A stretch of 64,000 bases of DNA from an uncultured Gammaproteobacteria bacterium (GTDB taxonomy: Bacteria > Patescibacteriota > Microgenomatia > UBA8517). Below, piece after piece: positions 2,471-48,562 of the stretch. Within the stretch, counting starts at the first letter, position 1; each line of letters begins with the position of its first letter. The stretch lies in NCBI GenBank assembly GCA_964599625.1, contig CAZRGC010000003.1, positions 97,759 to 161,758 on the forward strand, in the 5' to 3' direction. The position numbers were made by a program, and so were the translations under genes. The notes beneath the pieces were generated by a model. It made no database searches. It was not told the origin of the DNA and worked only from the letters and a program-made list of their open reading frames with translations.

Positions 2471-4825
2471 ATGAAGAAAATAACAAAATCTTTAGAGCTC
2501 GGAGGAAAAACTCTGACTCTTACCACAGGTGAACTTGCAGAACAGGCAGCGGGTGCAGTTCTCGCTAGAATGGGCGACACAGTCGTATTGGCAACAGTGG
2601 CCGCAGCTCCACTCAAGATGGAAATGGATTATTTTCCACTTACAGTTGAATACCTCGAAAGACTTTATGCCGGTGGACGTATCAAAGGCAGTAAATGGGT
2701 CAAAAAAGAAGGAAGGCCCACAGATGAGGAAATTCTTTCCGCGAGACTTATAGACAGATCCATAAGACCCCTTTTCCCCAAGACCTACAAAAAAGAAGTT
2801 CAGGTGATTGTCACTGTAATGGCTGTGGACATGGAAAATGACCCTGCCATTTTGGGTGCAATCGCGGCTTCGGCAGCTGTTCACGTTTCTACACTTCCCT
2901 GGAAAGGTCCAGTTGCTCCACTTACGGTTGGACTTATAAACGGAGAGTACAAGATTAACCCGTCAAATTCAGAGATGGAAAATTCACTTATGGATCTTAC
3001 AGTTTCTTCGACAAAAGAGGCTGTTCTCATGATCGAGGCAGGAGCCAAAGAAGTAACAGAAGAGCAAATTGTGGGAGGAGTTGAATTTGCACAGAAAGAA
3101 TCTAAAGCGGTTTTGGCTTTTATTGAAGAACTTGCAAAAGAGGCAGGTAGGGACAGAGAAACATATGTTCCCGAAAAACCTTCTGCTGAACTTGAAAAAC
3201 AAGTAGAAAAACTGGTTGGAGACAAAATTGCGGGTGTTGTTGAAAGCTTGGTTAGTGTAGAAAACGGAAGATCTACAGAGCTTCAGGATTTGATTGACGC
3301 AGTTGTTGCAAATGTTACGGAGGAAGATGCTAAATGGGTTCCTGAGATTGTTGACCATATGAAGAAAGATTATATTCGTAGTCAGATTCTCAAAAAAGGA
3401 AAAAGACCAGACGGCAGGAAACTCACGGAAGTCAGAAAACTTTCTGGTGAGGTTGGCTATTTACCCAGAGTTCACGGTTCGGCTTTGTTCAAAAGAGGGC
3501 AGACACATGTCTTGTCTGTAGCTACGCTTGGTGCTCAGTCAATGGGACTCCTTTTGGAATCTGCAGAAGGCGAAGTCGAAAAAAGATATATGCACCAATA
3601 TTCCATGCCTCCTTATGCCAGCGGTGAGGTTGGAAGATTTGGTAACGCAGGAAGACGCGAAATTGGACACGGTGCTCTCGCAGAACGTGCACTTACACCG
3701 GTAATTCCTTCTCAGGATGAGTTCCCTTACACAATAAGAGTGGTATCAGAAGTTATGAGTTCAAATGGTTCGACTTCAATGGCTTCTGTTGTTGGTTCTA
3801 CATTGTCACTCATGGATGCAGGTGTACCCATAAAAGCTCCTGTTGCAGGTATTGCAATGGGTCTCATTATCGAAAACGAAAAAGAATTTGCGGTTCTTTC
3901 GGATATCATGGGCATCGAGGACTTCAACGGTGATATGGATTTCAAAGTGGCAGGCACCGATAACGGAATTACAGCACTTCAGCTTGATGTTAAGACCCTA
4001 AACCTTACCAAAGAAATTCTGGAGAAAGCACTTGAACAGTCCAAGGATGCAAGGTCCCAAGTGATGAAAGCCATCAAGGACACTTTGGCTGAACCCAGAA
4101 CTACAGTCTCGGAATATGCACCCAAGATTAAAGTGGTTAAGATTCCAGTTGAGAAGATTGGGGAATTTATAGGCCCAAGCGGAAAGAATATCAAAAAGCT
4201 TATGGCTGACACAGGGTGTCAGGTGGACGTTGAAGACGATGGAAGTGTTGCTATATCTGGAGTTGACCCGGACAAGATGCAGCAGGCGGTTGCATTTGTA
4301 GAAGGTTTTGCAAAAGTCGTGCAACCTGGAGAAATTTATGAAGGTGAAGTCGTGAGACTTATGTCATTCGGGGCATTTGTAAATATTTTGCCCGGCAAAG
4401 ACGGCATGGTGCATGTTTCAGACATGGGCCAGGAGGGATTTGTTAAAGATGCAGGAGATGTTGTAAGCATTGGACAAAAAGTTCAAGTTAGAGTTAAAGA
4501 AGTTGACGATATGGGAAGAATCAATCTTTCTATGAATATGGATCCTGCAATGGATGAAAAGATCAAAGCTGAAAGACAAGCAAAGTTTGGTGACAGAGGC
4601 GGCAGAGGTGGCGGACGAGGTGGATTTGGCGGAGGTCGCGGCGGATTTGGAGGCGGCAGAGGTGGCGGACGAGGTGGATTTGGCGGAGGTCGCGGCGGAT
4701 TTGGAGGCGGCAGAGGAAGAAGTTTTGACAGAGCCGATAGGGGTGCAAGTGGGGGACCACATTTTCCTGCATCCAGATTAATGGGTGACAATAATTCTTC
4801 GGGTGGCAACGACTTCGGAAGATAA
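2471..4825 (+). CDS. pnp: polyribonucleotide nucleotidyltransferase (PNPase) with C-terminal RGG-repeat tail
   Basis: 784 aa with two RNase PH-like halves (FPLTVEYLERLYAGGRIKG, GHGALAERAL), a KH region (IGEFIGPSGKNIKKL) and an S1 region (GEVVRLMSFGAFVNI). The tail is a Gly/Arg/Phe repeat. Confidence 0.95.
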   Translation: MKKITKSLELGGKTLTLTTGELAEQAAGAVLARMGDTVVLATVAAAPLKMEMDYFPLTVEYLERLYAGGRIKGSKWVKKEGRPTDEEILSARLIDRSIRPLFPKTYKKEVQVIVTVMAVDMENDPAILGAIAASAAVHVSTLPWKGPVAPLTVGLINGEYKINPSNSEMENSLMDLTVSSTKEAVLMIEAGAKEVTEEQIVGGVEFAQKESKAVLAFIEELAKEAGRDRETYVPEKPSAELEKQVEKLVGDKIAGVVESLVSVENGRSTELQDLIDAVVANVTEEDAKWVPEIVDHMKKDYIRSQILKKGKRPDGRKLTEVRKLSGEVGYLPRVHGSALFKRGQTHVLSVATLGAQSMGLLLESAEGEVEKRYMHQYSMPPYASGEVGRFGNAGRREIGHGALAERALTPVIPSQDEFPYTIRVVSEVMSSNGSTSMASVVGSTLSLMDAGVPIKAPVAGIAMGLIIENEKEFAVLSDIMGIEDFNGDMDFKVAGTDNGITALQLDVKTLNLTKEILEKALEQSKDARSQVMKAIKDTLAEPRTTVSEYAPKIKVVKIPVEKIGEFIGPSGKNIKKLMADTGCQVDVEDDGSVAISGVDPDKMQQAVAFVEGFAKVVQPGEIYEGEVVRLMSFGAFVNILPGKDGMVHVSDMGQEGFVKDAGDVVSIGQKVQVRVKEVDDMGRINLSMNMDPAMDEKIKAERQAKFGDRGGRGGGRGGFGGGRGGFGGGRGGGRGGFGGGRGGFGGGRGRSFDRADRGASGGPHFPASRLMGDNNSSGGNDFGR
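4598..4717 (+). repeat. perfect 54-nt tandem duplication (2.2 copies) encoding GGRGGGRGGFGGGRGGFG
   Basis: 4598-4651 and 4652-4705 are identical base for base. A partial third copy spans 4706-4717. Confidence 0.95.
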
Positions 4826-4882: not shown

Positions 4883-5929
4883 ATGGATACTGCCGCACAA
4901 GAAATAAACGTACTTATAGAAAAAGTTAAGGCCTCGGATATGCCCGACAAACTTCGTGAGAGAGTGATGGTAAGACTTAGTCAGTTGGCAAAACTTACAA
5001 ATTCCCCATCTTTTTTGCCAGAATTCGACAGCATGGTCAAATATATTGATTGGATAACAATTCTTCCTTGGAACAAAAGAACTAAAGATGTTTTGGATCT
5101 AGCTAACGCCGCAAAAATTTTGGAAGAACATCATTACGGATTGGCCGAGCTAAAAGAGAGAGTTTTGGAGTACATGAGTGTTATGAAACTTAAAACAGAG
5201 CGCGGAGAAAGTGCAGACATATATAGGGCCCCAATTCTTTGTTTTGTGGGACTTGTTGGTACAGGAAAGACAACGATCGCATATTCTATTGCCGAAGCTT
5301 TGGGACGCCCCATTGCCCGTATTCCTTTTGGAGGAATGGGAGACCCGCTTGATCTTCGTGGACAGTCTCGTATGCACCCCGAAGCAGAGCCGGGGAAGAT
5401 TATTAAAGCACTAAGAGACTGTCAGTCCAAAAATCCTGTCATACTTTTGGATGAAATCGACCGTGTCACAGAACAGGGTAGGGCTTCAATAATGGGTGTT
5501 TTGGTTGAGCTTTTGGACCCTAAACAGAATAAAGCTTTTACTGACCACTATTTAGATTTTCCAGTGGATTTATCCGAAGCATTGTTTATTGCGACAGCAA
5601 ACAACACAACCAATATAGCAACTGCTGTTATGGACAGAATCGAACCAATTTCCATGCCTTCATACTCAGATCAAGAAAAAATAGTAATTGCCAAAAAATA
5701 TATTCTGCCGCACGCGCTTAAAGCGTCAGGGCTTCCCGAGGGGTCTTTAACTATAGACGACGAAGTTTGGATTAATATTGTCCGTCCTTTGGGATTTGAT
5801 GCAGGTATCCGTACATTGGAAAGAAATATAGACGGCGTTGTGAGGAAAGTTGCAAGGTTAATGGTGGAAGGAAAAGCACAAACAGTAAGTGTTACCCCCC
5901 AGAACGTTAAACAATTCATGCCACAGTAA
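4883..5929 (+). CDS. Lon-like AAA+ ATPase module without a protease domain
   Basis: Lon-type text is present: EHHYGLAELKERVLEYMSV, Walker A GLVGTGKTT, Walker B ILLDEIDR, GIRTLERNI. The ORF stops where the S16 protease domain would begin. ATG 4883 is preferred over GTG 4847. Confidence 0.7.
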   Translation: MDTAAQEINVLIEKVKASDMPDKLRERVMVRLSQLAKLTNSPSFLPEFDSMVKYIDWITILPWNKRTKDVLDLANAAKILEEHHYGLAELKERVLEYMSVMKLKTERGESADIYRAPILCFVGLVGTGKTTIAYSIAEALGRPIARIPFGGMGDPLDLRGQSRMHPEAEPGKIIKALRDCQSKNPVILLDEIDRVTEQGRASIMGVLVELLDPKQNKAFTDHYLDFPVDLSEALFIATANNTTNIATAVMDRIEPISMPSYSDQEKIVIAKKYILPHALKASGLPEGSLTIDDEVWINIVRPLGFDAGIRTLERNIDGVVRKVARLMVEGKAQTVSVTPQNVKQFMPQ

Positions 5930-11673: not shown

Positions 11674-12303
11674 ATGAAAACAATTGGACAGATACTCAAA
11701 AATGCCCGTGTTGAAAAAAAACTTTCAATTGCTGATCTGGAAGACACCACAAAGATCAAGGAATCTTTTCTAAGATCGATCGAAAATGAAAACTGGTCGT
11801 CACTTCCCGCATTCCCAGTGGTACTGGGTTTTGTAAAGAGCATATCAGGTGTGTTGCATTTAAACGAAAACACAACGGTGGCAATTCTTAAAAGGGACTA
11901 CCCACCCAAGAAACTGACAATAAATCCAAGTCCGGATATTTCTGATAAAAAAATGGTGTGGGGTCCAAAGACGACTTTTTTTGCCGGTGTTTTTTTTGTG
12001 GTTCTTTTTGTTGTTGGGTATTTGGGTTACCAATACTACAAATTTGTTTCTCCACCAATGATAAGACTGGAAAGTCCCAAGGAGAATCAAATGATTTCAG
12101 GGAGTTCTGTTCTCGTGTTTGGTTCAACAGATACAGACGCCAAAATAACTGTAAACAACCAACCTGTTTTGGTTGATGACGGGGGTAAGTTCAAAGTAGA
12201 TCTTGGAGTGAGCAAAGCGACTCAGGAAGTTGTTGTGAAGGCCACGTCCCGTACTGGCAAAGAGAGTGTAGTTTCGCGTAAAATAAACGTAAGTCAAAAC
12301 TGA
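11674..12303 (+). CDS. rodZ: RodZ-like cytoskeleton-associated protein (HTH + TM)
   Basis: N-terminal XRE-type HTH (IGQILKNARVEKKLSIADLEDTTKIKESFLRSIE), one TM helix, and a beta-rich C-terminal domain. Confidence 0.6.
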   Translation: MKTIGQILKNARVEKKLSIADLEDTTKIKESFLRSIENENWSSLPAFPVVLGFVKSISGVLHLNENTTVAILKRDYPPKKLTINPSPDISDKKMVWGPKTTFFAGVFFVVLFVVGYLGYQYYKFVSPPMIRLESPKENQMISGSSVLVFGSTDTDAKITVNNQPVLVDDGGKFKVDLGVSKATQEVVVKATSRTGKESVVSRKINVSQN

Positions 12304-27731: not shown

Positions 27732-28511
27732 ATGTCTGGCCCCGATTCCCCTTTTCACTCAGACTCAAGTGTTTTCGAAACAAAAAACTCTCATATAGAC
27801 ACCCCTTTAGAGACAGTAATAAAAGCGGATTATTGGGCCAATTCACATTATCCTCAAATGTGGATAGCAAAACGCCTGGTTACAACGCACGCAGCTTTGG
27901 AACAGGTGCTTGCGGGAAAGTTGTTGTGGAGTGATTTTTCCACATCACAACTCCCCGACGTTTTTATTGAACCCCATATGAAAGAAAAGGCAAATAAAGC
28001 ACATGCTGCATATGGGCAACCTGCAATAATGGATCGTGATCTTAACAACCTGTGGAGGTCTGATGTAAGTGATGTATCAAATACACTTTGGAATTTGCTG
28101 CCCGACAAGGGAGACCCGTTGGAAATCCAAGACGTAACAATTGCCAAAGCCTTGAAAGACCCAAAAAATAAACAGTTTTTTGGGTCGTTGTTGGGTGTAT
28201 TGGCGGCAGAGAAGTCGGCCTTGGAAAGCCAGGAGTGCCTGGAGATATCAAAAGACCTGCGTGAGTCATTAAGAGACCTTCATCATAAAAAATTTGACCG
28301 CGGGTATAGTTTTTCTTTAAAGGAACAAGCTGACTTAAGGGTCAGATGGAACGCTATTTCAGACCGTCTCGAGTCTGTTTTGCAGCGGGAGCTTTCAAAG
28401 GCCAATCAAAAAGCAAAACTGATGCTTAACGATAGCCAATTGGAGTTTCTAACGCATCAAATCCATGTTGGTTCGAGAGTTGTGGCCAGTACGCCGATGG
28501 AGTCTTTTTGA
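27732..28511 (+). CDS. hypothetical protein inserted between rpsG and fusA
   Basis: 259-aa ORF, predicted helical, with no motif recognised. Sampled 60-nt lines are 50-57% G+C, above the flanking genes. Confidence 0.55.
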   Translation: MSGPDSPFHSDSSVFETKNSHIDTPLETVIKADYWANSHYPQMWIAKRLVTTHAALEQVLAGKLLWSDFSTSQLPDVFIEPHMKEKANKAHAAYGQPAIMDRDLNNLWRSDVSDVSNTLWNLLPDKGDPLEIQDVTIAKALKDPKNKQFFGSLLGVLAAEKSALESQECLEISKDLRESLRDLHHKKFDRGYSFSLKEQADLRVRWNAISDRLESVLQRELSKANQKAKLMLNDSQLEFLTHQIHVGSRVVASTPMESF

Positions 28512-30805: not shown

Positions 30806-31600
30806 ATGAATTTCTTTAAGAAAGTTGCTTCTAGTGTTTATTCCCCGGAGTTCTATTCCCAAATACCCAAAATGACACTTGGTTCTGTGTTGGGTTATTT
30901 TTTCTTGCTGCTTCTAGTGGTCGAACTTGTCATGTTTGGCAAAAGCATGCCGGAGTTTATGTTTGGTTTCTCAGGAAAGATAAAATCTACAATAAGCGAG
31001 GTTATCGACACTTATCCCAGTAATTTGGTTTTGACAATCAAAGATGGAGCGCTTTCCACCAATGTTAAGGAGCCTTACTACCTTATGGATAAAACCAACA
31101 ACAAGTTCGCGGTTATAGACACAAAAACTGCATACTCTGCCGATCAATTTAAAAAGTACAACGTACCGGTCTGGGTTACCAAAGATACTGTTTTTTACCA
31201 AGACAGCGACCAAATCAAGAGCAATAGTTTTGTAGAGATGAAAGATATGGTGGTAAACAAAGAACTTGTAAACAGTTTTTCTGCCAAAATATCTCCCTGG
31301 ATTCCATATTTTGGCCCTGTTGTTATGATTTTTGCACTCGTAACTCTTTACGCCCTCCAATCTTTCAGACTGGTTTATGGGTTTTTCCTTGCACTTTTAA
31401 TTTTGCTGGTTGCCAAAATGACCAAGAAAAGTCTGACGTATAAAGAATCTTACAAAGTAGGGATATTTGCCATGACACTACCCTTTATTTTAGAAGCGCT
31501 TAATACCTATATCGGTTGGAAGGCTTTTCCGTTCACTTTTACTATAATTGCACTTATTGTTGTTGGCGTAAATTTTGCAGGATCCAACTCGAAGAAGTAG
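30806..31600 (+). CDS. DUF1189-like polytopic membrane protein
   Basis: 264 aa. The N-terminus MNFFKKVASSVYSPEFYSQIPKMTLGSVLGYFFLLLLV follows the DUF1189 pattern. C-terminal TM helices are present. Confidence 0.45.
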   Translation: MNFFKKVASSVYSPEFYSQIPKMTLGSVLGYFFLLLLVVELVMFGKSMPEFMFGFSGKIKSTISEVIDTYPSNLVLTIKDGALSTNVKEPYYLMDKTNNKFAVIDTKTAYSADQFKKYNVPVWVTKDTVFYQDSDQIKSNSFVEMKDMVVNKELVNSFSAKISPWIPYFGPVVMIFALVTLYALQSFRLVYGFFLALLILLVAKMTKKSLTYKESYKVGIFAMTLPFILEALNTYIGWKAFPFTFTIIALIVVGVNFAGSNSKK

Positions 31601-32985: not shown

Positions 32986-33291
32986 ATGGCAATTAGACTA
33001 AGAGTCAAACTTAAAAGTTATGACCACAGGGTCTTAGATGAAGCAGCCGGTAAAATTATAGATACCGCGCTATCATCTGGTGCAAAAATTGTCGGTCCTA
33101 TTCCTCTCCCCACAAACCGCAGCGTAATGGCAATCAAAGAATCACCATTTACGGACAAAGACGCTCAGGAACACTTTGAAGTTCTAACCCACAAAAGACT
33201 TATTGATATTTTGGACCCAACCCCCAGAACTGTTGATTCTTTGGGCAACCTCGACCTCCCTGCGGGAGTTTCTATCGAGATTAAGATGTAA
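32986..33291 (+). CDS. rpsJ: 30S ribosomal protein S10
   Basis: 101 aa: [35 protein letters not shown]. Confidence 0.97.
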
Positions 33292-33318
33292 GGCCTCTTG
33301 TTCGACCAAACCCCATAG

Positions 33319-33346
33319 TTGGAATAACTGAACTACCTGATATAAT
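33319..33346 (+). promoter_or_regulatory. island promoter P-A (preceded by a CCCATAGTT box)
   Basis: CCCCATAGTTGGAA, with -35 TTGGAA (33319-33324), a 16-nt spacer, then TGA-TATAAT (33341-33346). Confidence 0.55.
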
Positions 33347-33398: not shown

Positions 33399-33701
33399 AT
33401 GGATCCGATAAGAGTAGTTGTTGCAGTGGATGGCGACAAGGCAAAGTTCCACACCACTTTTCCGTTGGACGTGTATTTACCAGGACGACAAAAAAGGTCT
33501 GAAAAAGGCCAGGAGCTGGTAAACAAGTTGAAAGAGGTCAAGGGTATTAAAAACGAAGAGTTGGATATCTGGATCTACGAATATGAAATTTCGGCCAATA
33601 AGCTACACGCCTTTAAATGGAAGGATGAGGTCGCACCTGCTGTAGTTGAGGTTCTCAAGACCTTTTACAATCTCGGCACAGTCGAAATTGTATACGAATA
33701 A
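33399..33701 (+). CDS. island ORF A, orphan protein (100 aa); weak Nfu_N-like pattern
   Basis: ATG at 33399 with AAAGGAA 7 nt upstream. No family recognised. The EKGQELVNKLKEVKGI...WKDEVAPAVVEVL pattern is shared with ORF D. Confidence 0.6.
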   Translation: MDPIRVVVAVDGDKAKFHTTFPLDVYLPGRQKRSEKGQELVNKLKEVKGIKNEELDIWIYEYEISANKLHAFKWKDEVAPAVVEVLKTFYNLGTVEIVYE

Positions 33702-33735
33702 TACCCTGTCCGAATATCTGTTGTGTTAGTTTTTG

Positions 33736-33771
33736 CTCCGCTTTGTGGAAATTTCCCGGGCGGAGTTTTTT
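33736..33771 (+). terminator. island terminator, junction copy alpha
   Basis: CTCCGC (33736-33741) pairs with GCGGAG (33760-33765). The inner palindrome is GGAAATTTCC. T6 follows at 33766-33771. Confidence 0.8.
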
Positions 33772-33793
33772 GTGGCCAACATTAGTCCCATAG

Positions 33794-33823
33794 TTGGATT
33801 TATGGTGGTTAATCTGCTAGAAT
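33794..33823 (+). promoter_or_regulatory. island promoter P-B
   Basis: CCCATAGTTGGAT, with -35 TTGGAT (33794-33799), an 18-nt spacer, then TGC-TAGAAT (33818-33823). Confidence 0.55.
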
Positions 33824-33866
33824 CCGCTAGCACGTTGAATTATTACAGAACGTCCTTGGAGGAACA

Positions 33867-35015
33867 ATGATTCTTGGACTGAAATTAACTGTCGAAAACG
33901 ACGATATTGTCGACATTGGCGGAGATTTGTACGTCAAAAACTCCAAAGCCATGAAGCGTCTTCACAGGGAGCTTCGCTACCTGGGATACCAAATCGACAA
34001 CTTGCGGCACGATAAATACCGCTTGGACAAGGGAGCCACCCCGCGCGAAATGGAAAAAGGTGGTTGGTCGCTTTGGTTTGCCAAGTTACCCAATATCAGA
34101 CGTGGTGTCTGTGGAAGCTGTGGAGCAACCATTTCCACTCTCGGCATTCAGTCACACGGCCACAAATGCGAGAGGTGCGGCGAAGTGACCTACTGGGAAA
34201 TGGTGGAAGGATCAGTAATCCGGTTCGTCTTTTTGCAAAAAGAGGGCCGTGGAATGTGGGATCCCGAGCTTAAGATGAAAGTGCACCATTGGGATACGCG
34301 TGAAGGGCTTTTATATCTTTACCCGGAAGCCTTGGAAGGTGGCCTTTCGACTGTGACGGGAGATACAGCACGGCAGTACTTGGGCAATAACCACGAAAAG
34401 TGGAATGTAGTCACGATCGATGGCCAAAAAATTATCGTGATCAAGTACCCCAAGCAGTGGCGGCGCGATACGGCTGTTATCGAACCTTATGAGATTTACG
34501 GTCATCAGTGGAATCACAAGATCGTCAAAATCTACAAAGGTAAACATTACAGTGACTGGGACCGGCTCCCTGTTCCCGAGACATTTTCTATCTACGAAAC
34601 CTGGCACTGGGACAAGCTTGTGGCTTCGCCAACATTGCACAGGCGTGTATTGCAGGCTGTTCACAACACCGATGACAAGGGTTGGCACTACCAAGACGGT
34701 CGTCCCTGGTTTAGAGAAGGAAGCTGGAAGGGCATGGCAAAGTTTATTCGCCATTTTACAGCCCTTGATGCTGATGCCTTTGACCGAGCCTGGCCACGTT
34801 TCAGAAACGACGGTCCCGGCGGGATCGACGACTTGGCACACTTCTGTCACCCCAAAGCCATCACTCGTGATGAGCCAAACATAGGTAATGTTCTTGTTGC
34901 CATGGGGAAACGCATGGAAAATAAGTCTCTCACGCGCGATGAGATCGAAGCAGCCAAACGCGGCTTGAGCGATCCATTGACGGGTGATTTTTTACGTTCC
35001 CTGCGTAAGCGTTAG
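33867..35015 (+). CDS. island ORF B, orphan Trp-rich protein with a CxxC..CxxC zinc ribbon (382 aa)
   Basis: GGAGG lies 4 nt upstream of the ATG. It contains CGSCGATISTLGIQSHGHKCERCG and many Trp residues (WHW, WDxxW). No family recognised. Confidence 0.7.
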   Translation: MILGLKLTVENDDIVDIGGDLYVKNSKAMKRLHRELRYLGYQIDNLRHDKYRLDKGATPREMEKGGWSLWFAKLPNIRRGVCGSCGATISTLGIQSHGHKCERCGEVTYWEMVEGSVIRFVFLQKEGRGMWDPELKMKVHHWDTREGLLYLYPEALEGGLSTVTGDTARQYLGNNHEKWNVVTIDGQKIIVIKYPKQWRRDTAVIEPYEIYGHQWNHKIVKIYKGKHYSDWDRLPVPETFSIYETWHWDKLVASPTLHRRVLQAVHNTDDKGWHYQDGRPWFREGSWKGMAKFIRHFTALDADAFDRAWPRFRNDGPGGIDDLAHFCHPKAITRDEPNIGNVLVAMGKRMENKSLTRDEIEAAKRGLSDPLTGDFLRSLRKR

Positions 35016-35028
35016 TTTTGGAGTCTCA

Positions 35029-35064
35029 CTCCGCCTTGTGGAAATTTCCCGGGCGGAGTTTTTT
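35029..35064 (+). terminator. island terminator, junction copy beta
   Basis: CTCCGC (35029-35034) pairs with GCGGAG (35053-35058). T6 follows at 35059-35064. It is near-identical to copies alpha and gamma. Confidence 0.8.
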
Positions 35065-35087
35065 GTGGCTAAAATAAGCCCCATAGT

Positions 35088-35116
35088 TTGACATAACTTT
35101 GAACCTTTGATATATT
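35088..35116 (+). promoter_or_regulatory. island promoter P-C
   Basis: CCCATAGTTTGACA, with -35 TTGACA (35088-35093), a 17-nt spacer, then TGA-TATATT (35111-35116). Confidence 0.65.
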
Positions 35117-35156
35117 CACAAGGTTTATTTGCACATTATGGTTAAAAGGAGAGACT

Positions 35157-35660
35157 ATGGGAATTACCCATGCAGAGGGTGTTGACTTGCAAGAGTGGGC
35201 GAATGCTCACAAACCGGATGATGACTTGATTTACAGGGATGGTTATTGGCATCAAATCATCTTTGTCCGGGATCGCTTGCCACAGCCGCTTTTTGGCTCA
35301 TACGAAGAGTACAAAGCCAATCCGGTACGCGTGGTGGGTGATCATACAAGCAAATCAGTACTCCTTCCTGTTTACAGTATCAAATTTGCTCCTCTCGAAA
35401 TTCGGATGCGTTACAACTTTTACGACTGGAAAGTGAGTGTGGTATCTCAAGTTCCCATCAGGTCGAACTTTTACCCGTTCCTTTTTAGAGATGAAGCTGT
35501 GCACCCGGTTTATTTTGAGGGTTTTACCAATGACTGGGTTTTTGGCTCCTACTCTGCCGACAACACCAAATTTTCTGTTGAAATTAGCAACGAACACATG
35601 TTGTTCGCTTTCATGGCTATTTTAGCGGGTGATTTGGGCTTGGGAGGCAATAAGAAGTAG
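35157..35660 (+). CDS. island ORF C, orphan aromatic-rich protein (167 aa)
   Basis: AAGGAGAG lies 3 nt upstream of the ATG. No TM segment or signal peptide, and no family recognised. Confidence 0.65.
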   Translation: MGITHAEGVDLQEWANAHKPDDDLIYRDGYWHQIIFVRDRLPQPLFGSYEEYKANPVRVVGDHTSKSVLLPVYSIKFAPLEIRMRYNFYDWKVSVVSQVPIRSNFYPFLFRDEAVHPVYFEGFTNDWVFGSYSADNTKFSVEISNEHMLFAFMAILAGDLGLGGNKK

Positions 35661-35672
35661 TTTGGAGCTCAA

Positions 35673-35708
35673 CTCCGCTTTGTGGAAATTTCCCGAGCGG
35701 AGTTTTTT
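35673..35708 (+). terminator. island terminator, junction copy gamma
   Basis: CTCCGC (35673-35678) pairs with GCGGAG (35697-35702). T6 follows at 35703-35708. Confidence 0.8.
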
Positions 35709-35731
35709 GTGGCAAAAACAAGTCCCATAGT

Positions 35732-35761
35732 TTGACAAAGCCTCGAATATGGTTTTATAAT
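35732..35761 (+). promoter_or_regulatory. island promoter P-D
   Basis: CCCATAGTTTGACA, with -35 TTGACA (35732-35737), an 18-nt spacer, then TATAAT (35756-35761). Confidence 0.65.
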
Positions 35762-35805
35762 CATCTGTTGTCAGAAATTTGTACTTTACAAAAAATAGCT
35801 TGGCA

Positions 35806-35846
35806 GGCAGCTTTTTACCCGTAAAATTTATGGTTGAAAAGCTGCC
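35806..35846 (+). promoter_or_regulatory. 10-bp perfect stem in the ~155-nt 5' UTR of ORF D
   Basis: GGCAGCTTTT (35806-35815) pairs with AAAAGCTGCC (35837-35846), with a 21-nt loop. Confidence 0.5.
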
Positions 35847-35922
35847 TACGGATGATAGTGAGGCGTATGGGAGCACTCCTAAAACAAAAACCAAATAAAA
35901 ATTAGAAAGTAACAGGAGCAAA

Positions 35923-36300
35923 ATGTCTCAATCTCAAAAGCGCGTTTCCGAACGCGAGGTACCCGAAGTCAATCCCAACAAGAGGTTTTTCCCAGACTTT
36001 CCTCTTTGCAACGACACGGCTACCCACACAAGCTATTCATACAGGAACAAGAAGGATGTCGGTGAAAAGGGTGTCGCCTTGGTAGAGGCTGTTTTGGCAA
36101 TCCACGGCGTGATCGATCTGACGATCTCAAAGAATGAACTTCGGGTCGTCAAACAACCTGCCCACACCTGGGAAGAGGTTACACCTTTGATCCACAATGC
36201 TTTCAGGCATGTTTACGGCGACGATATCAAATTTATCGGAGAAAACAAGGCTATTTTGGCCTACAGACGTCTCCGAGTTGCCATGAACGTGGCTAAGTAA
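35923..36300 (+). CDS. island ORF D, orphan protein (125 aa); weak Nfu_N-like pattern
   Basis: AGGAG lies 4 nt upstream of the ATG. EKGVALVEAVLAIHGVIDLTISKNELRVVKQPAHTWEEVTPLI resembles the Nfu/NifU N-terminal domain text and ORF A. Confidence 0.65.
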   Translation: MSQSQKRVSEREVPEVNPNKRFFPDFPLCNDTATHTSYSYRNKKDVGEKGVALVEAVLAIHGVIDLTISKNELRVVKQPAHTWEEVTPLIHNAFRHVYGDDIKFIGENKAILAYRRLRVAMNVAK

Positions 36301-36315
36301 CATCAATGGCCTTCC

Positions 36316-36347
36316 GGCCCAAATCTCACAAGGTTTGGGCCTTTTTT
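36316..36347 (+). terminator. strong rho-independent terminator closing the island
   Basis: GGCCCAAATCT (36316-36326) pairs with AGGTTTGGGCC (36331-36341), loop CACA. T6 follows, and the TTTTTTGTGG tail is shared with the junction repeats. Confidence 0.85.
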
Positions 36348-36364: not shown

Positions 36365-36393
36365 TTGCGGCGTTTTGGTATATCTGATATAAT
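36365..36393 (+). promoter_or_regulatory. promoter re-starting transcription toward rplC
   Basis: TTGCGG (36365-36370), a 17-nt spacer, then TGA-TATAAT (36388-36393). Confidence 0.45.
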
Positions 36394-36465
36394 TCCGAAT
36401 AACAAATATGGTGGTTACAATGTTTGCTCAACCACGCTAAGTTAGTCTTTGGCAGATGCCTCACT

Positions 36466-36489
36466 GGCGCCTTCCGAAGGCGCTTTTTT
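36466..36489 (+). terminator. terminator-like hairpin inside the rplC leader (attenuator or end of a ~90-nt small RNA)
   Basis: GCGCCTT (36467-36473) pairs with AAGGCGC (36477-36483). T6 follows at 36484-36489, 50 nt upstream of the rplC ATG. Confidence 0.5.
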
Positions 36490-36539
36490 GTTTAATGTCC
36501 TTCGACTCGCAAGAGCTCGCTCTAGGATCCAAAACAAAT

Positions 36540-46504: not shown

Positions 46505-47476
46505 GTGGCTCAAAAAGAAGACGACTCCTACCAAAAATATCTTGAAGACAAACACTTGGCATTTGCAACGCCCGAAAGTCTGGTATCGTCTATGGTAAAA
46601 AAGGCAACGGGATCAGAACCCTTTTCTGTCGAAAAGTTGATTCAGGGTGAAGTGAACGAGGTTTATGATGTGGAGGCTGGTGGTCAAAATGTAATAGTAA
46701 GAATTTCCCGACAAGGACCGGAAAATTTTGAAACCGAAGAAACTGTAATACGCCTCGCTTTGCAAGCAGGTGTACCCGCTCCCAAAGTTCTTCTTTTGGA
46801 ATCTGCCTCAACCGAAACCGAAGAATTGACCTTTTGTATAGAAGAAAAGATTGAAGGAAAGCCATTGAAAGAATTACTAAAAACTCTGGACGCAGAAACT
46901 CTCAAGGCAATTCTGATTCAGTCGGGCGAGATATTATCCCGTATCCATTCATTGGAAACGGACAGATTTGGGCCCTTGGATAGGCAGGTCTTTTATCCTT
47001 CATGGACAGAATATTTATTCAGGAAGGAAGAAAATAAACGTGAGATAATTGAGTATGGCTCTAAAGTGGGACTCCTGCCCGGTGTTATAGATAAAGCCTT
47101 TTCTATACAAAGGAAAAACTCAGGAATTTTGGAAATACAAATCCCCTATATTCTGCACGGCGATTTTAGTCCCAAACACATTCTCACGAATGGAAAAACA
47201 GTCACTGGAATAATAGATTTTGAAGACGCCAAAGGAGGCGATCCGGTGAGAGATATTGCTTGGATGAACTTTTTTTATGGCGATTCGGTAAATCTTGAGT
47301 GGTTTTTAGAAGGATACGGAAGGGAAAAAACAGGAATGGACTTTGATATAAAAATGAGACTTTTGAAAGTTAACTTGGGACTGGACCTGTTGGATTATTA
47401 CGGATCAGAAGGTAATATTTCAGGACTTAAATACTCGAAACGTAAATTGGAGGAAGAGATGGAATTTTTCAAATGA
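46505..47476 (+). CDS. APH/choline-kinase-family phosphotransferase (GTG start)
   Basis: Kinase-like N-lobe (VYDVEAGGQNVIVRI), catalytic loop ILHGDFSPKHIL, and metal-binding IIDFEDA. Confidence 0.75.
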   Translation: MAQKEDDSYQKYLEDKHLAFATPESLVSSMVKKATGSEPFSVEKLIQGEVNEVYDVEAGGQNVIVRISRQGPENFETEETVIRLALQAGVPAPKVLLLESASTETEELTFCIEEKIEGKPLKELLKTLDAETLKAILIQSGEILSRIHSLETDRFGPLDRQVFYPSWTEYLFRKEENKREIIEYGSKVGLLPGVIDKAFSIQRKNSGILEIQIPYILHGDFSPKHILTNGKTVTGIIDFEDAKGGDPVRDIAWMNFFYGDSVNLEWFLEGYGREKTGMDFDIKMRLLKVNLGLDLLDYYGSEGNISGLKYSKRKLEEEMEFFK

Positions 47477-47483
47477 CCCGACA

Positions 47484-48065
47484 ATGAATTCAAACACAAT
47501 AGTAATTTTGGGAACCCTGATTGGTGCAATTGGCTCGATCTTTTATCTTGTCGACGTTGTTAAGGGAAAAATAAAACCCAATCGGGTTTCTTTTATTCTT
47601 TGGTCACTCCCACCATTGATATCTGCATACGCAAATATTAAAAGTGGCGGTGGAATTGAATCTTTAATGACTTTTAGTGTTGGTTTTTTTCCACTGCTTA
47701 TATTTTTGGCAACTTTTCTCAACAAAAAATCCGTTTGGAAACTTACCAAATTTGATTTTGTTTGCGGCGCACTTTCACTTTTGGGATTCCTGCTTTGGCA
47801 GGTAACAAAAGAAGGATATTTGGCAATAACTTTTAGTATAGTTTCCGATTTTTTGGCTGGAATTCCCACCATAACAAAAACTTACAAACACCCAGAAACG
47901 GAACTGGCTTGGCCCTGGTTGATGCCGGTCTTGGGAGAAATTCTTACACTTTCCACACTTGGGGATATTACTTATCTCAACTCAGGTTTCATGATTTACG
48001 TAACTTTGTATAACACAGTCATTTTTCTTTTGGCGCAGTATAAAATCGGAAAGATATGGAAATAA
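47484..48065 (+). CDS. polytopic membrane protein, unknown function
   Basis: 193 aa with about six hydrophobic segments. Confidence 0.55.
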   Translation: MNSNTIVILGTLIGAIGSIFYLVDVVKGKIKPNRVSFILWSLPPLISAYANIKSGGGIESLMTFSVGFFPLLIFLATFLNKKSVWKLTKFDFVCGALSLLGFLLWQVTKEGYLAITFSIVSDFLAGIPTITKTYKHPETELAWPWLMPVLGEILTLSTLGDITYLNSGFMIYVTLYNTVIFLLAQYKIGKIWK

Positions 48066-48562
48066 TTAAACTACCTGTTTCAGAGTGGAAAAGTTATAAA
48101 GCAATAAGGCTTCGAGCTCTCAAGGAAGACCCTCAGGCATTTGGAGCCTCATACGACGATGCGGTCAAATTTGACGAGTCCGAATGGAGACGCAGGCTTG
48201 AAAATGCCGAAAATTCGGACAGAAGTTGGTTATGGTTTGCACAAGAAAACCAGAAAATTGTAGGCCTTATTGGGGCATATATGGAAAAAGGTGCAACAAA
48301 TGAGGCAACTATAGTTTCTGTTTTTGTTCCCAAGGAAGAAAGAGGGAAAGGAATATCGAGCCTTTTGATGGATAAGATGATATCCGAACTTTCAGCTAAA
48401 CCATATCTCAAAAAAATTAATTTGACTGTGAACAAAGACCAAGTAGCGGCCGTAAATCTTTATACAAAGTTTGGTTTCGTAAAAGTCGGTGAGCAAAATT
48501 TTAAAATGGGAAACGGTCAGAAGGCTGTGGAATTTGTTATGGAAAGACAAATTAGCACTTAA
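48056..48562 (+). CDS. GNAT family N-acetyltransferase
   Basis: Motif A VFVPKEERGKGISSLLM, and a C-terminal NLYTKFGF. Confidence 0.8.
   Translation: MEIIKLPVSEWKSYKAIRLRALKEDPQAFGASYDDAVKFDESEWRRRLENAENSDRSWLWFAQENQKIVGLIGAYMEKGATNEATIVSVFVPKEERGKGISSLLMDKMISELSAKPYLKKINLTVNKDQVAAVNLYTKFGFVKVGEQNFKMGNGQKAVEFVMERQIST

Follow-up and report, generated by a model that had tools for sequence, protein, structure and literature searches.

Why are otherwise unrelated genes, lodged in the middle of a ribosomal gene cluster, joined by nearly the same sequence? The question is raised by a 64-kb stretch of a Patescibacteria genome (contig CAZRGC010000003.1; hereafter the window, to which all searches of the genome were confined). 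Its rpsJ–rplC gap is filled by an island of four self-contained genes of unknown function, encoding proteins of 100, 382, 167 and 125 amino acids (aa), and a module of about 65 nt recurs between them. We lean towards an explanation in which the modules are the joints of units resembling phage morons and double as short shared sequence for recombination. Each such unit, or cassette, would consist of a promoter, a 5' untranslated region (5' UTR) with a Shine-Dalgarno sequence, an open reading frame (ORF), and an intrinsic terminator.

The first-pass annotation of this DNA had placed the ~65-nt unit at 33736-33799, 35029-35093, and 35673-35737. All three copies, here named alpha, beta, and gamma in order along the window, were recovered at these positions and nowhere else. 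In particular, the 41-nt core CTCCGCYTTGTGGAAATTTCCCGRGCGGAGTTTTTTGTGGC has exactly three matches (at 33736, 35029, and 35673, all on the plus strand) and none in 100 shuffles, while the repeat search of the window extended the family to 87 nt for beta and gamma. An nhmmer profile built from five copies, the three in the window and two from the related locus L028, found no additional unit in the window, diverged ones included. The shorter string CCCATAGTT occurs four times in 64 kb, against 0.45 expected, and all occurrences are within the island, three in the modules and the fourth at its left edge (33312-33320). All copies of the module share one orientation and one position, past a stop codon and ahead of a promoter. 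Logan assemblies of at least three independent sequencing runs contain the 382-aa cassette flanked by alpha (5') and beta (3'). As independent assemblies give the same joints around this cassette, the repeat is not an assembly artefact; the Logan contigs end within the repeat, as a de Bruijn graph would predict.

This distribution bears on the possibility that the module is a dispersed repeat similar to repetitive extragenic palindromic (REP) sequences, bacterial interspersed mosaic elements (BIME) or miniature inverted-repeat transposable elements (MITE), or a DNA-uptake sequence, clustered here by chance. It is a short palindromic intergenic repeat, and TTTTTTGTGG, a part of it, is over-represented in the window (6 copies, 1.0 expected). 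However, a dispersed element should not be limited to three sites of the same orientation and position, with no further copy in 64 kb even in the profile search and no target-site duplications. Moreover, searches with the core returned nothing convincing from GTDB representative genomes, JGI metagenomes, or IMG/VR: the 16 single matches in GTDB representative genomes come from unrelated organisms and were read as chance, the only one in JGI metagenomes falls within a DegV-like coding ORF, and there was no match at all in IMG/VR. GenBank phages contain no real match to the full beta module. Judging from the 64 kb and these collections, we consider a dispersed repeat highly improbable, and the cassette interpretation thus survives the case named beforehand as fatal to it, that of a generic REP element found throughout the genome.

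The 5' half of the module is a predicted intrinsic terminator, in which an RNA hairpin and the U-tract after it would end the upstream transcript. The hairpins occupy positions 33735-33766 in alpha, 35028-35059 in beta, and 35672-35703 in gamma, with T6 at 33766-33771, 35059-35064, and 35703-35708, respectively. By sequence they have what defines this class, that is, a GC-rich hairpin, a U-tract, and a place after the stop codon, from which they start at a distance of 12-34 nt. The stem has 13 bp and two one-base bulges, is followed by U6, and has computed folding energies of -16.0, -18.5, and -16.5 kcal/mol in the three copies. Substitutions in the stem preserve pairing: among the five copies, one pair is C-G, U-G, or U-A, another is U-G or U-A, and the pair at the base is G-U or A-U, so that pairing is kept in all 65 sequence-by-pair cells. 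The variation is uneven along the module, with 7 of 11 columns variable in the spacer vs. 6 of 54 in the hairpin, T-tract, box, and -35 (Fisher p = 5.5e-4), which suggests that the terminator and promoter blocks are both under constraint. Rfam yielded no match at gathering score in the window, only sub-threshold matches to terminator-like 3' ends of small RNAs.

Some earlier structural proposals have to be dropped or narrowed. The string GGAAATTTCC, regarded as a palindrome that could bind a protein, is the top of the hairpin, whose apex is GGA-AAUU-UCC, and the related terminators of the loci L005 and L039 do not retain it. An alternative fold pairing GGAG upstream of the hairpin with CUCC of its 5' arm is less stable than the terminator fold by 5-6 kcal/mol, and two of the five copies lack it. 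The TTTGGAG stretch upstream of beta and gamma is indeed common to both, but differs between them by an indel. Finally, what was described as a half-module at the right edge of the island is a terminator (36316-36347, plus strand; 11-bp stem and T6) that shares TTTTTTGTGG with the modules but nothing else, as its stem (GGCCCAAATC.../...GGTTTGGGCC) is different. In L028, its counterpart is 89% identical and comes after an unrelated gene; by this comparison, it is part of the island backbone and not of a cassette.

The 3' half of the module, comprised of an A-rich stretch, a CCCATAG box, and a -35 element, would start the next transcript together with the -10 element of the next cassette. The order downstream of the U-tract is GTGG, a variable A-rich stretch of 10-11 nt, the box, and the -35 hexamer. 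The box and the hexamer are located at 33787-33793 and 33794-33799 (TTGGAT) in alpha, at 35080-35086 and 35088-35093 (TTGACA) in beta, and at 35724-35730 and 35732-35737 (TTGACA) in gamma, and the complete modules span 33735-33799, 35028-35093, and 35672-35737 on the plus strand. The -10 elements are outside the repeat: each cassette, those of L028 included, brings its own, 16-18 nt past the -35 and mostly with an extended TGn, and they were found where the first-pass annotation had put them. The promoter scan detected the beta promoter (TTGACA, spacer 17, TATATT at 35111-35116, belonging to cassette 3), the gamma promoter (TTGACA, spacer 18, TATAAT at 35756-35761, belonging to cassette 4), and that of a promoter half-module at the left edge (33312-33346, plus strand), with CCCATAG at 33312-33318, the -35 TTGGAA at 33319-33324, spacer 16, and the -10 TGaTATAAT ending at 33346. 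These three score 10-12 of 12 as sigma-70-type promoters, and the ORFs downstream have a Shine-Dalgarno sequence. The alpha promoter (TTGGAT, spacer 18, extended -10 TGcTAGAAT from cassette 2, 33818-33823, plus strand) was read by eye, because its -35, with 3 of 6 consensus matches, is too weak for the scan. Taken together, the hairpin energy, the U-tract, the stem substitutions that preserve pairing, and the cassette-supplied -10 at the right spacing support the original reading of the unit as a terminator joined to a promoter.

The box, in the extended form CCyATAGyTTGA, is found upstream of cassettes in the window and in the related loci L007, L026, L028, L036, and L038. It also precedes homologues of the cassette 2 ORF (ORF2; the others are numbered likewise) outside the gap, beside restriction-modification genes in L039 and beside a serine recombinase in L040. 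It is not present in the housekeeping promoters checked in the window (upstream of tuf, probable rpoB, rplC, and others), nor is it positioned upstream of viral homologues. The earlier suggestion of a shared regulator acting at this box gains from its conservation across lineages with unrelated terminators and its absence from housekeeping promoters of the window. One DNA-binding factor, or a specialised promoter class, probably governs all cassettes through this box.

Two further observations concern the promoter region. A 20-nt promoter stretch, CCCATAATCTTGACATTTGG, is identical in L005, a Woesebacteria chromosome (at ~36, minus strand), and in L036 (at 2576), where it is ahead of the ORF3 homologue of an unrelated island; promoters of the box type may be portable or tightly constrained. 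In addition, the start region of ORF3 (ACTATGGGAATT, 35154-35165) is complementary to the box region of gamma (AAGTCCCATAGT, 35720-35731), with 11 of 12 bases pairing at a distance of 554 nt, which is probably chance.

Shared regulation could by itself account for the modules, if an ancestral joint was duplicated together with genes and then held by co-regulation, the differences from L028 being ordinary indels with no role of the module in turnover. The concentration of variation in the spacer, the retention of the box across lineages and also outside the gap, and the fact that copies at matching positions are more alike across strains than copies within a genome all fit this explanation, which we nevertheless hold to be rather unlikely, given the comparisons with L028 and other islands.

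The island of L028 is comprised of ORF1, a module, ORF3, a second module, an unrelated 144-aa ORF, the right-edge terminator, and rplC. Compared with the window, L028 lacks the 382-aa cassette and has the 144-aa ORF in place of the last cassette, that of ORF4. Both differences have their breakpoints at module or terminator edges, similarity beginning at the first hairpin base and stopping directly after the -35. In terms of nucleotide identity, ORF1 is at 72% (59% in amino acids over the C-terminal 73 codons) and its 3' UTR is not alignable, after which identity reaches 94.7% in module beta from the first hairpin base, 93.8% in ORF3, and 89.6% in module gamma up to the TTGAC of the -35. No similarity follows that point until the right-edge terminator; rplC is 88% and rplD 77% identical. 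The proportion of identical codons at conserved residues is 86% in ORF3, compared with 69% in rplC, 55% in rplD, and 51% in ORF1. Since the value for ORF3 is far above the others, this suggests that the segment from module through ORF3 to module was exchanged or shared more recently than the surrounding backbone. The swapping of cassettes at the joints, proposed as a check in the first-pass annotation, is thus seen in a related island. Conservation by regulation alone does not predict that both differences would have both breakpoints at module or terminator edges, or that the ORF3 segment would be so much more similar at synonymous sites than the backbone on its sides.

Other lineages extend this comparison. 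The contents of the rpsJ–rplC gap differ in all ten related loci fetched, representing ~8 distinct lineages; different small genes are found in it in L007-L009, L026, L027, L028, L030, L031-L033, L036, and L038. For example, the gap encodes proteins of 139, 61, 382, and 80 aa in L007, of 142, 58 (minus strand), and 123 aa in L026, of 112 aa in L027, and of 89 aa in L030. L033 has several small ORFs on both strands, L036 has six genes, one of them a homologue of ORF3, and in L038 the products are of 126, 109, and 125 aa, the last being a homologue of ORF4. Judged by these loci, the gap in this group of Patescibacteria is a hotspot of variation. Some islands have repeats of their own. L036 carries three near-identical copies of the terminator TAGCCCTGAACA...TGTTCAGGGCTATTTTTTT (2067-2118, 3680-3731, 4968-5017), and L038 two copies of another, GGCACC...GGTGCCTTTTTTT (979-1026, 2141-2188). 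Given that other islands repeat different terminators, the exact hairpin sequence is not required, and identity within an island reflects copying, which again argues against regulation as the sole cause. L033 contains two identical 31-nt stretches (2396-2426, 3252-3282) that end in TTGTCAA and are promoter-like.

Inside the islands of L036 (1340-1380) and L038 (1529-1546), a box promoter is immediately preceded by a remnant of the rpsJ 3' end. The one in L036 encodes ...AGVSIEVKM* with different codons. These remnants point to past recombination or insertion events anchored in rpsJ. As for the origin of the module, terminators after ORF2 homologues in L005 and L039 (ACCTCCGTTTT...ACGGAGGTTTTTTT) resemble its hairpin, with a weak match (E = 0.05); because of this resemblance, the terminator of ORF2 itself may be the source of the module here. 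The ORF2 homologues of L005 and L039 are at other genomic sites and have in common the terminator that comes after them, ACCTCCGT...ACGGAGGTTTTTTT, and a 3' UTR (11170-11220 in L005, 6170-6220 in L039), both of which resemble the module hairpin.

We thus favour the view that moron-like units are joined by recombining modules. Given a hairpin stop followed by a fresh promoter, each cassette would be insulated from read-through out of tuf-rpsJ and out of its neighbours. Since the joints are the only sequence common to otherwise unrelated cassettes, they could serve as shared stretches for RecA-dependent recombination. Possible routes are unequal crossover, integration or excision of a circular intermediate, and import of foreign DNA; such events would add, delete, or replace entire cassettes and maintain the resemblance of the copies in each lineage. 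RecA, RecX, and RuvX are encoded in the window, and we infer recombination from the arrangement of the sequences compared. Tuf and ribosomal-protein genes have been described in one study as prominent among horizontally acquired genes in Patescibacteria (PMC12455944), which fits frequent recombination in the rpsJ–rplC region.

Several points weigh against this view. The same module is found in one relative only, L028, so that exchange is argued from one pair of islands, and ordinary deletion after an old duplication would look identical. A length of 65-87 bp is short for efficient RecA-mediated recombination. Copies at matching positions (beta and L28_1, 96.9%) are closer than copies within the genome (beta and gamma, 92.3%; alpha and beta, 87.7%), so that the duplication of the module predates the split of the window strain and L028, and ongoing homogenisation within the genome is not demonstrated by these identities. 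The covariation in the stem is statistically weak, as 212 of 500 shuffles were equally good with just five copies. The activities assigned to the module, termination and initiation, are predictions from consensus, and the factor binding to the box is postulated.

The precision of the cassette boundaries also invites comparison with a site-specific system similar to integrons, in which the hairpin repeat would be the recombination site, folding as a single strand like attC, and the recombinase would be encoded elsewhere. The repeats are alike within the array and unlike between lineages, as attC sites of chromosomal integrons likewise are, and the hairpin at each site is imperfect, with bulged bases left unpaired. 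However, neither the rpsJ–rplC gap nor a scan of ~30 non-ribosomal ORFs of the window revealed a tyrosine or serine recombinase, integrase, or transposase, and the ends of the site lack the RYYYAAC / GTTRRRY core pair. Integron cassettes are usually promoterless, while here each cassette has its own promoter. Moreover, the U-tract follows the hairpin exactly where a terminator needs it, and the right-hand breakpoint is in the promoter, ~60 nt from the hairpin. All this makes a site-specific system improbable. A bolder reading is a cassette-capture system of Patescibacteria, in which phage-related genes with a portable CCyATAG-box promoter would be aligned at a fixed site of the ribosomal cluster, the lineage-specific joints would be the recombination sites, and one dedicated factor binding the box would control the entire array. 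Such a system would be integron-like in function, but would lack an integrase and have a promoter for each cassette; we regard it as a speculative and unlikely possibility. In the literature, of which our coverage was incomplete, we found no description of an rpsJ–rplC hotspot, the CCyATAG box, or a capture system of this kind.

The cassettes themselves, all on the plus strand, encode ORF1 (33399-33701, 100 aa, without a known family, with an orthologue in L028), ORF2 (33867-35015, 382 aa), ORF3 (35157-35660, 167 aa), and ORF4 (35923-36300, 125 aa). None of the four ORFs has a significant match in Pfam, PHROG, PADLOC, or NCBIfam; ORF4 has a weak Nfu_N-like match under the Pfam cut-off. The ORF2 family forms ~100 clusters in the protein database, and all names given by source are Patescibacteria, the closest named homologues being from Candidatus Woesebacteria and other Patescibacteria. 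Relatives of ORF2 are also present on two IMG/VR contigs, one of which (L034) is 327 kb long and has phage-like neighbours; elsewhere, its homologues adjoin serine recombinase or restriction-modification genes. The protein has four nearly invariant cysteines in a zinc-ribbon-like motif and a confident AlphaFold model (pLDDT 93), for which no meaningful relative was found among solved structures. The ORF3 family is found in Patescibacteria and, in addition, at 45 loci on IMG/VR contigs (L042-L086), many of them 100-500 kb long. The ORF4 family is rare, with homologues in the same gap of L026 and L038. The 5' UTR of cassette 4 contains a conserved 21-bp hairpin (35801-35851, plus strand) with seven compensatory pairs in three lineages, and this hairpin of the ORF4 family is also seen in L026 (~12244-12290) and L038 (~1617-1667); it could be a cassette-specific cis-regulatory RNA.

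The genes on the plus strand are in the order fusA, a DUF1189 gene, tuf, rpsJ, the island, rplC, rplD, and the remaining ribosomal cluster. The conserved flanks of the island are rpsJ, encoding ribosomal protein S10 (32986-33291, plus strand; homologues in related loci carry PF00338), and rplC, encoding ribosomal protein L3 (36540-37265, plus strand; PF00297 in related loci). Since rpsJ lacks a terminator of its own and rplC comes with a separate promoter and leader, the island is placed between two transcription units. The region from 36365 to 36539 on the plus strand contains the rplC promoter, TTGCGG-17-TGaTATAAT, and a conserved structured leader. This leader (36394-36539), located between the promoter and the start codon, is also present in L028, L026, L007, L027, L030, L033, and L036. 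It consists of a GTGGTT/AACCAC hairpin, a long helix, a terminator-like hairpin with T6 resembling an attenuator (36466-36490), and a helix adjacent to the start codon. With nine pairs showing compensatory changes in eight lineages and without an Rfam match, it may be an attenuator regulating ribosomal-protein synthesis. More non-ribosomal genes are found within the ribosomal gene cluster, at 27732-28511, 30806-31600, and 46505-48562 of the window; the embedded genes encode a 259-aa protein without a family, a DUF1189 protein, an APH-like phosphotransferase, a 193-aa protein of unknown function, and a GNAT acetyltransferase.

In Patescibacteria, whose genomes are very small, the acquisition and control of accessory genes are little understood. 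The locus points to turnover of small phage-related genes at one fixed hotspot within the chromosome's most conserved part, and the fusion of terminator and promoter would let each newcomer be expressed separately without disturbing the ribosomal operons. The conserved box could define a regulon of otherwise uncharacterised genes, and CCyATAGyTTGA provides a sequence handle for finding such cassettes and their regulator. The modules are also candidate compact promoter and terminator parts for genetics in Patescibacteria. In practical terms, the rpsJ–rplC interval calls for caution, as it is usually taken as syntenic in marker-gene phylogenomics and the repeat breaks short-read assemblies there.

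Among known systems are phage morons, self-standing transcription units that have been inserted into a conserved operon, between its genes (PMC3594210). Like them, each cassette has its own promoter and factor-independent terminator, the cassettes are insertions between genes that are adjacent or nearly so in related genomes, the GC content of ORF2 deviates (0.47-0.53 vs. ~0.42 in the flanks), and two cassette families, ORF2 and ORF3, are also found on large viral contigs. Unlike morons, the array is in a bacterial chromosome, in a ribosomal-protein gene cluster, with no phage genes around it (the flanks are tuf-rpsJ and rplC-rplD), and its four units are linked by near-identical joints, all with the CCCATAG box just upstream of the -35. 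With the minimal mobile elements of Neisseria (PMC3594210, PMC3787668), the island shares fixed flanks, rpsJ and rplC, and contents that vary between relatives, as seen in the ten related loci, as well as the lack of dedicated mobility genes. Mosaic identity at synonymous sites and the rpsJ 3' remnants are consistent with flank-anchored recombination. By contrast, the internal repeats would allow exchange of a single cassette rather than of the whole region, and the host is a Patescibacterium, for which we infer both transformation and recombination.

Similar to integron arrays, the island has single-gene cassettes in one direction, separated by hairpin-forming repeats that are similar in the array and different between lineages. 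It differs from them in having no integrase, attI site, or attC core sites and in carrying a promoter on every cassette, the repeat being a terminator joined to a promoter. Taken singly, the two halves of the module look like ordinary intrinsic terminators, with a GC-rich hairpin and a U-tract, and sigma-70 extended -10 promoters, with a TTGACA-like -35, a TATAAT-like -10 at 16-18 nt, and TGn before most -10s. What sets them apart is that here they are fused in a duplicated 65-nt unit with CCCATAG at about -44 to -38.

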